A DNA stretch of 64,000 nt from Octopus vulgaris. Taxonomy: Eukaryota. The position numbers and the translations under genes are program-made. Positions within the stretch are counted from its first letter, which is position 1, and each line of letters begins with the position of its first letter. Shown in pieces: positions 25,506 to 27,272 of the stretch. The notes below the pieces were generated by a model, which did not search any database, was not told the origin of the DNA, and saw only the letters and a list, made by a program, of their open reading frames with translations. The stretch is from positions 43,896,001-43,960,000 of the forward strand of contig OX597829.1 in the NCBI GenBank assembly GCA_951406725.2, in the 5' to 3' direction.

Positions 25506-26447
25506 ATATAGTTTTAGTTTTCGTGAAATATAGATAAATTTAGATCTATCGCGATGCGGCATCATTTAACAGCAATCATCGATACCTGATAACTGAGTGC
25601 AACACGATCGATTTCTTTCTAATGTACAGAGACTGAACCAATGCAATTTCCAACACCTGTTCGGTGCTGGCAGCAATTAAGTCAACCGTCAAAAGAGTTT
25701 GTAAATAAAGTGAATATCCTTTACACCATTTTGTTTTTGACATTTTCGCTCTCGTTCAGCTACTGAGGCATGGCAGAGGTGTTGTGTGTGCACAAACAGG
25801 GAACAAGAAAACTGTGATAATATGCTTGGATGACATAATTCTTCCCGTGGTGTTTTAGGTACACCAAAAATCGCAGTGGTCGATATTTAACTGTAGAAAG
25901 AAGATGCCACAAGAACGCTCATTAGAGTAGTCCAATGAGTTAGCAGCTCAGAACACGGGGAGATAAACACCATGCCGACTAGTTTCGCCAGGACTTGCTT
26001 ATTTAGTCTTCTTCCTTATGCGTTTTATATTCAGGTTATATAAGCATGTCAATCTGCGTGACTTCACTGTAGATATTTACACATAAACAGACTGTGTTCT
26101 TAATGTAATTATATAACGGTCATAAATATATTTTGTACTATTTTCTAAGTACTTACAAGTAGTAATAGCTTGTATTATCTTTATATATAAAAGTGAGGTT
26201 GTGTGCTGTCTGTCTCTTACGATTTAGATTTCTAACTACTCCCACATTTTGCGGTGCAGTTTAACCAAAACCGGGTATCTTATAGTCGTGATTCATATCG
26301 AGCCCTTCTGGGTATTAGCGCGCGTCTACGATGAGTCTGCGATTAAAAAAAAAAATTACCATGAATTTTTCCCTTTTTTAATGCATTTTTGGCATATATA
26401 AGGGAAGTAACTCTCTAAAAATTTATTATTAAATCTCAGAACGTAAA

Positions 26448-27005
26448 AAGCTACAGTAACCCCGCCCCCCTTTGTGGTTAGCCATATTGAGATGGCAAGG
26501 GATGGCCTCCCTTTGCAAATACTCCAAGGACACAGATATTGTGTCTAAAGCCAGCTAGAGATGAAGATCTCTTGGGGCTATAAAGCTACAGTAACACCCC
26601 CTCCCCAATGTGGTTAGCCATGATAAGATGGCTTCTATACTTTACATTATCGAGCGATTACTGTTTCAATCTCATTCTGAGATTTAATTTTCTTACTGTT
26701 CGTTTTTCGACATCAGTGGCAGACGCCATTAGAAAAACTTATATCTAATTGCAAAGGAGCCTTCACTTTCATCGCTACCTGGGGGTTACCGCCCGTTGAC
26801 GAGGGACAACAATCCCGAAACTAGTTCGAGCGTATCACTCAGGCTTGCGAGGAAGGGATGGCCTCCCTTTGCAAATACTCCAAGGACACAGATATTGTGT
26901 CTAAAGCCAGCTAGAGACGAAGATCTCTTGGGGCTATAAAGCTACAGTAACATCCCCTCCCCAATGTGGTTAGCCATGATAAGATGGCTTCTATACTTTA
27001 TATTA
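26448..27005 (+). mobile_element. Retrozyme-like tandem unit (356-bp period, ~1.4 copies plus a short third fragment)
   Basis: 26497-26650 recurs at 26853-27006; HHR lies between the repeats; homologous to 40336-40690. Confidence 0.65.
26787..26834 (+). ncRNA. Type I hammerhead ribozyme (C3U variant)
   Basis: CGCCCG-TTGACGA-GGGA caacaa TCCC-GAAA-CTAG-TT-CGAGCG; palindromic AACTAGTT stem III; one stem I mismatch; GUU triplet at 26824-26826. Confidence 0.7.
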
Positions 27006-27272
27006 TACTTTACATCTCCAAAAATGCTTATATAGTTATTTCCCTTACAAACCCGAGCAACGACGGGCGATACTGCTAGTACAAAATAAAACATAATATT
27101 CTTTACTTTAGCAGTTGAAAGGTGAGGGAAGAGATTACATACGAACCTATGACGGAAGCTGAAGCTAGTTCGAGCGATTCCCCCCTCCAGATTCTAATGT
27201 CGCTATATTCACGGAATAAATTTCGTATTTCCATAAGTATTCGTAAATACATTGTATTGATACTTTTGCAAT

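Follow-up and report, generated by a model that had tools for sequence, protein, structure and literature searches.

A Young Retrozyme Nested in an Octopus Helitron, and an Older, Ribozyme-Less Remnant Likely Spread by the Same Helitron Subfamily

Overview

The 902-bp composite at positions 26178-27079 of a 64,000-nucleotide stretch of the Octopus vulgaris genome (hereafter the window; G000:C16:43896001-43960000) is a single nested insertion, in which an element of a known kind sits in a transposon of a known kind. It is very probably a nest in two layers: a young retrozyme of subfamily A lies in a Helitron of about 397 bp that held an older insertion of subfamily C, and both insertions were likely made by the target-primed reverse transcription of a Penelope-like element (PLE).

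The sequence-only reading of this locus had described canonical Helitron ends around a 356-bp-period repeat, with a hammerhead between the repeats that carries U at core position 3. These features were confirmed: the Helitron starts with A|TC at 26178 and ends with a hairpin and CTAG|T (27052-27079); the repeat is a direct one of 154 bp (26497-26650 and 26853-27006, 98% identical, with a spacing of 356); and the hammerhead, which Rfam matches as HH9 below the gathering score, has helices that are supported across subfamilies. The suggestion that a ribozyme retroelement had been inserted into a Helitron is likewise supported, by the existence of a free, dispersed family of the element and of Helitron copies without the cargo.

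The Helitron Host

The host is non-autonomous and non-coding. Its 5' backbone (26178-26422, + strand) begins with TC after an A; when the first 319 bp were used as a query against the assembly, which comprises 2.8 Gb and is microsatellite-rich, the best 40 of 1,197 candidates were scored and found to be 96-97% identical over positions 1-319. The 3' end (27027-27079, +) contains a subterminal hairpin with a CCCG/CGGG stem (27052-27067, computed fold), 12 nt short of the terminus, and CTAG before T at 27079. The ends of the window copy are intact, and among 29 other copies, 27 have a|TC and 26 have CTAG|T. Copies with common ends are dispersed through the genome, inserted between A and T without target duplication, and they form subfamilies with differing interiors (about 300, 397 and 510 bp). 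The window host is therefore like other non-autonomous TC...CTRR Helitrons in its 5' TC, its 3' hairpin with CTAG and its duplication-free A/T insertion, and there is nothing unusual about it.

The 3' end is common to many subfamilies, and its contig depth (27011-27090) is far higher than that of the retrozyme unit in two putative RNA runs (X15 and X16), as it is in DNA runs. At window positions 1545-1595 (-), a diverged 3' end of a Helitron stands by itself (80% over 51 nt). Elsewhere in the window, a minisatellite of about 12 copies with a 30-bp period occupies 25163-25539, and a 150-aa open frame at 51569-52018 (-) may represent the C-terminal portion of a protein from a non-LTR retrotransposon.

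The Young Cargo and Its Junctions

The young cargo (26497-27000, +; 504 bp) is a 5'-truncated, single-armed retrozyme of subfamily A that is 1.4 units long, the unit being 356 bp here and 357 bp in the subfamily, and that has no target-site duplication. It begins with the first copy of the overlap, a partial upstream unit (26497-26650, +); the second copy (26853-27006, +) reaches the 3' end A of subfamily A. The copies show three differences, one of which is the junction base, which leaves 2 in 148 inner bases.

The cargo went into GGC|TATTAT, where it produced neither a duplication nor a deletion. At the 5' junction, the sequence-only reading had seen a join through GATGGC microhomology; this hexamer turned out to be the Helitron's own, and the cargo begins with AAGG directly after it, with zero common junction bases. 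The only microhomology at the junctions is ATTAT, at the 3' end of the cargo (27002-27006), which is common to cargo and target.

The presence of the cargo in the Helitron is ordinary nesting and a single event. The motifs across the 5' and 3' junctions, both unique, have one match each in the 2.8 Gb, and no second composite with these junctions was found in the genome by this motif search, which allowed up to two mismatches. When 227 nt spanning the 3' junction served as the query, the window alone covered them in full among the best 40 of 2,399 candidates scored. All of the 29 other Helitron loci lack the cargo, their sequence being uninterrupted at GAGATGGC|TATTAT, except that one has a short deletion right after the insertion point and one a rearranged 3' part; 30 further copies, taken in chromosome order, also lack it, so that 0 of 59 carry it. 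With the whole 902 bp as the query (3,985 candidates, best 40 scored), the 30 loci that were fetched, the window excepted, matched in the cargo part alone, at 95-97%, and without Helitron ends. The flank downstream of the window composite is single-copy. One locus (L007), where the alignment ran past the end of the cargo, was considered as a second composite and rejected because of its unrelated AT-rich flank.

Could the Helitron nevertheless carry and spread the entire hammerhead-bearing unit as its cargo? Its intact ends make the composite mobilisable in principle, and the same Helitron subfamily likely spread an older insertion (see below). The idea is, however, highly improbable and is refuted for the present assembly by the singleness of the junctions, the absence of the unit from the 59 other Helitrons and the single-copy flank. 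The hitch-hiking of a ribozyme-bearing cargo, which had been one of the two options in the sequence-only reading, falls with it; that reading had proposed a count of Helitrons with and without the cargo, with a cargo found in one copy speaking against the option, and this is what the count returned. Ordinary nesting itself is of little import, since about 0.5 nests of subfamily A in this Helitron are expected by chance (600-700 insertions, 5,259 targets of 397 bp).

The Older Remnant

A third fragment of the cargo had also been proposed, immediately upstream of it. A related stretch does exist there (26444-26496, 81-85% related to the cargo), but it is not part of this cargo, being present in 29 of 29 and in 30 of 30 other sampled Helitrons of the window subfamily. 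It belongs to an older, two-armed insertion of about 86 bp between two copies of TCTCTAAAAAT(G). The left copy of this old target-site duplication (26412-26422, +) has 11 bp here and 12 bp in the lineage that retains the final G, while the right copy (27015-27026, +) has one substitution here. The left arm (26424-26443, -) is the inverted 3' end B, or tail end, of subfamily C, its 20 nt being the reverse complement of that end. The right arm consists of the 3' region of subfamily C without the ribozyme (26444-26496, +) and, parted from it by the young cargo, of the 3' end A of subfamily C (27001-27014, +); in other copies, the two parts are uninterrupted. Over 38 nt, the mean difference of the right arm is 7% to subfamily C, 24% to A and 22% to B. 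Moreover, the donor was predicted from the sequence of the insert and was then found, as subfamily C, with 244 unit-junction matches.

With one mismatch allowed, and with reversed controls that gave 0, the filled junction has 5,259 matches in the genome and the empty junction, which holds a single copy of the motif, 6,334. In 30 filled copies taken in chromosome order, the Helitron is always 344-401 bp and the old insert 75-89 bp; 11 of the 30 have a perfect 12-mer as their duplication, and another 13 differ, like the window, at the last base of the left copy. Empty sites are found in the subfamily of about 300 bp, in that of about 510 bp and in a third type whose upstream sequence differs, so that the empty state is the widespread one. 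Many identical junctions, a target-site duplication and empty exemplars are thus all present, as co-mobilisation demands, and it is likely that the Helitron subfamily copied this ribozyme-less remnant of subfamily C to about 5,000 places. Hitch-hiking likely did happen, therefore, to a different and older passenger, which the sequence-only reading took for a part of the cargo.

A tree of the 245-bp backbone (25 filled and 6 short empty copies) has no supported branch and 5 changes, with the filled copies not forming one clade, and no backbone column separates the filled from the short empty copies. Certain short empty Helitrons could be later deletions between the duplication repeats. The backbones of filled Helitrons differ by 6.1%, which points to a Helitron wave older than subfamily A, and the arms of subfamily C by 7.8%; to judge from these divergences, both are evidently older than the window cargo with its 2 differences in 148 inner bases.

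The young cargo sits within the 86-bp remnant and shares its orientation, 14 nt from the homologous 3' end, and the chance expectation for an insertion there is about 0.1, before orientation. One explanation would be that the remnant is a hot spot, drawing retrozymes by pairing with the 3' region of their RNA. We consider this explanation quite improbable. There is one event in about 5,000 targets (the search covered end-A insertions at this point, with up to two mismatches); the join is not in register with the homologous stretch, and its 5-nt ATTAT match is of the kind found at ordinary TA-rich targets. The window, moreover, was chosen because it looked odd. Ordinary nesting thus remains the preferred reading of the young insertion.

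The Retrozyme Family

A 28-nt motif of subfamily A has 959 matches in the genome, with 0 for the reversed control, and the first 100 of these fall in roughly 70 loci, from which some 600-700 insertions can be estimated. The 5' ends of subfamily A copies are scattered, and their 3' ends favour two points some 40 nt from each other, end A (corresponding to 26650 and 27006) and end B (near 26690), both of which run into TA repeats or AT-rich DNA. Their overlap varies in length, up to more than 2 units, and insertions span 0.3-3 units. In a position-ordered sample of 30 arms, of which two pairs are the same insertion, 15 arms extend across the predicted cleavage site; no arm has its 5' end within 10 nt of this site, and no arm lies inside a Helitron. 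A few best-match loci had hinted at 5' ends clustered at the cleavage site, and this was not borne out by the position-ordered sample. The arms that run through the site, together with the scattered 5' ends, indicate that a more-than-unit length is normal for the family.

These observations also bear on the origin of the 154-bp repeats, which might be LTRs, a tandem duplication made locally or an error in the assembly instead of a product of reverse transcription past the hammerhead site. In the window copy, the repeats do flank a middle part as LTRs would, and the locus is spanned by no contig of four public runs, which leave its unique flank uncovered and so neither confirm nor deny it. Yet all of these origins are scarcely credible: the overlap length is free among copies, fixed repeat boundaries are not seen, and the 5' ends are scattered while the 3' ends are fixed at two points; furthermore, the two window copies differ at inner bases and the insert splits the Helitron precisely. 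The sequence-only reading had itself raised an assembly artefact against its proposal; since the 356-bp period is present in dispersed copies of the family, it is no peculiarity of the Helitron, and such an artefact is unlikely.

Read-through reverse transcription, by comparison, agrees with the divergence of the units, which is 2.2% within an insertion (67 pairs) and 3.7% between insertions (1,540 pairs), as expected if a single template is copied more than once. This template would be either a circular monomer or an uncleaved multimer, and the data are compatible with both. Contigs of two putative RNA runs cover the retrozyme unit; ends, strand and circles are not visible in contigs.

Two outward-facing arms are present at 60 of 103 loci (10 duplicate or self loci excluded), an arrangement that the old remnant in the Helitron repeats in miniature. 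In 23 of these 60, each end could be assigned to a class, and the result was 22 insertions with A and B, one with A and A, and none with B and B; the other 37 have at least one unclassed end, usually one that runs on into TA repeats, and copies of subfamily C were sampled with a motif biased towards arms that bear the tail. Of the 22 A and B insertions, 15 carry a non-simple duplication of 9-15 bp (12-13 bp in 11 of them), and 6 of 7 single-armed subfamily A insertions that end at end A have no duplication. The unit has a GC content of 0.44 and a self-paired fold (z -4.0). No reverse transcriptase-like frame was found among the frames of at least 170 aa in 91 loci, and no open frame with reverse transcriptase (RT) and GIY-YIG domains was found in the cargo or its loci.

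A copy of subfamily B lies in the window itself (40380-40690, +); it is 74% identical to the cargo, and its query gave 2,980 candidates, with copies about 95% alike. Two more distant hammerhead repeats, at L228:2937-3490 (360-bp period) and L236:4576-4817, bring the number of such subfamilies in the genome to at least five. Certain insertions (L025 and L073) fold back on themselves several times in a nested manner or have an internal deletion where the hammerhead lies, which suggests repeated template switching during cDNA synthesis.

The Hammerhead

The hammerhead of the window copy (26778-26843, +) is of type I. It has the core UUGACGA (26796-26802), a helix I of CGCCCG/CGAGCG with a distal extension, a helix II of GGGA/UCCC (26803-26816), the GAAA motif and a palindromic helix III, ACUAGU (26820-26825), with cleavage predicted after U26826. 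The Rfam HH9 match (26778-26849) has 29.8 bits and an E-value of 1.6e-4, under the gathering score of 52. The UUGACGA core, with its U3, occurs in 54 of 65 subfamily A motifs; it is therefore a feature of the subfamily and not damage in the window copy. In an alignment of 18 rows from five subfamilies, 84% of the cells are paired and six pairs have changes on both sides, the structure having been supplied by the analyst, the rows being related and one truncated, and the shuffle values not being probabilities. The 3-8 core pair is U-A in 8, C-G in 5 and U-G in 3 of the 18 rows: subfamily A has a U3-G8 wobble with GUU and subfamily C a U3-A8 variant with GUC, and subfamily B, with C3-G8, has a mostly canonical hammerhead (CUGANGA and GUC), which is canonical in the window copy at 40380-40690.

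The U3-G8 wobble, U17, a helix III of one pair and the dimer cofold together predict that cleavage in subfamily A would be weak and dependent on dimers. Two consecutive hammerheads, 357 bp apart, which the release of a monomer calls for, are found at other loci of the family (L008). The window copy has one, and would presumably be unable to release a monomer alone. The available text of PMC4209133 describes, among metazoan and PLE hammerheads, both the U3-A8 variant and short palindromic helices III that act in dimers, and of nine Xenopus dimers, one was cleaved according to the available part of Li, Clavereau and Pollet (2026, bioRxiv 10.64898/2026.07.22.740005).

Several other candidates were set aside. 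A step in contig depth near 26831 was ruled out as a sign of cleavage because it is present in a DNA run too; a stretch that resembles the 3' part of a hammerhead (27161-27176) is single-copy DNA and was taken as chance; and Rfam matches to microRNAs and snoRNAs nearby are simple-repeat noise.

The Mobilising Enzyme

A genome search for GIY-YIG domains gave 6,136 candidates, of which 150 were scored, many of them in 781-aa open frames. One of these frames combines an RT domain with a C-terminal GIY-YIG domain, and copies are 97-99% alike; intact frames in such similar copies indicate that young PLEs are present. A young family of this kind (L227:1245-3587, that is, G000:C16:20836744-20839086, and L229-L235) has tandem repeats on both sides, and certain of its 3' repeats hold motifs like the hammerhead core.

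That PLEs mobilise the repeat would follow from the anatomy of the insertions. At the family level, these have an inverted 5'-truncated arm, a tail of 30-40 bp at one end, duplications of 9-15 bp and TA-rich targets; the window cargo itself is single-armed and without a duplication. Partial tandems, an inverted arm, a tail of 30-40 bp, duplications and TA targets are also what PMC8557442 and PMC3846280, as far as their available text goes, describe for PLE insertions. The mobilisation of animal retrozymes by PLEs was proposed in PMC7229834, and the homology of pLTRs was later brought in its favour (bioRxiv 10.64898/2026.07.22.740005), both according to the available parts of these sources.

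Another possibility is a LINE, for example, of the RTE or CR1 type. No homology between the repeat and PLE termini or pLTRs was found in 30 GIY-YIG loci and 10 wider stretches (from the 150 of 6,136 candidates scored), where the repeat occurred solely as separate insertions nearby; moreover, 5' truncation, inversions and microsatellite targets are also known with LINEs. A LINE is nevertheless unlikely, because outward-facing 3' ends a tail of about 40 nt apart, partial tandems and type I hammerheads are PLE traits in the available text of PMC8557442, PMC3846280 and PMC4209133. The repeat-like stretches at L228 and L236 were considered as an autonomous partner and rejected, since they lie outside or across PLE remains and look like separate insertions. 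A PLE thus remains the preferred candidate.

A Proposed Sequence of Events

The history began with the insertion of about 86 bp of subfamily C, with its two arms and a duplication of 11-12 bp, into a Helitron, as the anatomy shows; empty-site Helitrons exist as well. Rolling-circle transposition would then have spread this remnant, to judge from its copy number and its common junctions. Later, subfamily A entered GGC|TATTAT in one of the copies, with ATTAT microhomology, 5' truncation and no duplication. Its more-than-unit length may result from reverse transcription past the hammerhead site on a circular or an uncleaved multimeric RNA, and the composite has stayed in place since.

A bolder proposal makes the Helitron a recurring vehicle of retrozymes: one insertion reached about 5,000 loci with it, new ones are drawn by the remnant through RNA pairing, and the window copy founds a Helitron that carries a whole hammerhead unit. 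The constant combination of end A with end B on opposite arms would further reflect two DNA nicks that both prime on one circular RNA, at sites 40 nt apart. Taken as a whole, this is unlikely. If true, the two-site priming on one circular RNA would account for the Penelope 'tail'.

Comparison with Known Systems

Metazoan non-LTR retrozymes are non-coding units of 150-450 bp, with a GC content below 50% and a type I hammerhead, that coexist with PLEs; in mussels, the units are 350-390 bp (Cervera and de la Pena 2020, PMC7229834; bioRxiv 10.64898/2026.07.22.740005; available parts of both). The octopus repeat, as far as these parts allow a comparison, resembles them in its unit size, its GC content, its one type I hammerhead per unit, its tandem and partial-tandem copies, its self-paired fold and its coexistence with PLEs. 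It differs from them in that it occurs mostly as dispersed insertions of 0.3-3 units with inverted arms, that the window copy has a single hammerhead and subfamily A the U3-G8 wobble, and that the 30 GIY-YIG loci and 10 wider stretches yielded no pLTR homologue.

With PLE insertions, as described in the available text of PMC3846280, PMC8557442 and PMC4209133, the repeat has in common the partial tandems, the inverted 5'-truncated arm, the tail of 30-40 bp, the duplications of 8-15 bp and the TA-rich targets; with PLE hammerheads, it shares a dimer-type hammerhead with a palindromic helix III and, in subfamily C, U3-A8. In contrast to PLEs in these accounts, it has no RT or GIY-YIG open frame, and its hammerhead is canonical rather than minimal. 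Integration marks of the Penelope type, present in more than 100 dispersed insertions of three subfamilies, bear on the question of which enzyme mobilises animal retrozymes.

Among the papers listed by a literature search of largely open-access sources, none was a published account of a retrozyme inside a Helitron. The nearest precedent is that of Thomas et al. (2014, PMC4224331), whose available text describes mRNAs retroposed by L1 and nested with duplications in Myotis Helitrons, with empty exemplars (four cases, 118 copies), and lists retrotransposons among Helitron cargo. In both systems, a reverse-transcribed insert with a duplication lies in a Helitron, copies without the insert are also present, and the filled form became amplified. 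The octopus case differs from the bat one, as far as that text goes, in that the insert is a retrozyme remnant of about 86 bp whose copies, some 5,000, outnumber the 244 unit-junction matches of free subfamily C. This copy number is well above the published precedent of 118 in the same text. In the octopus genome, a retrozyme remnant that a DNA transposon likely amplified about 5,000-fold will confound both the annotation of repeats and the counting of retrozyme copies, and it extends the route found for nested retrogenes in bats (PMC4224331, available text).
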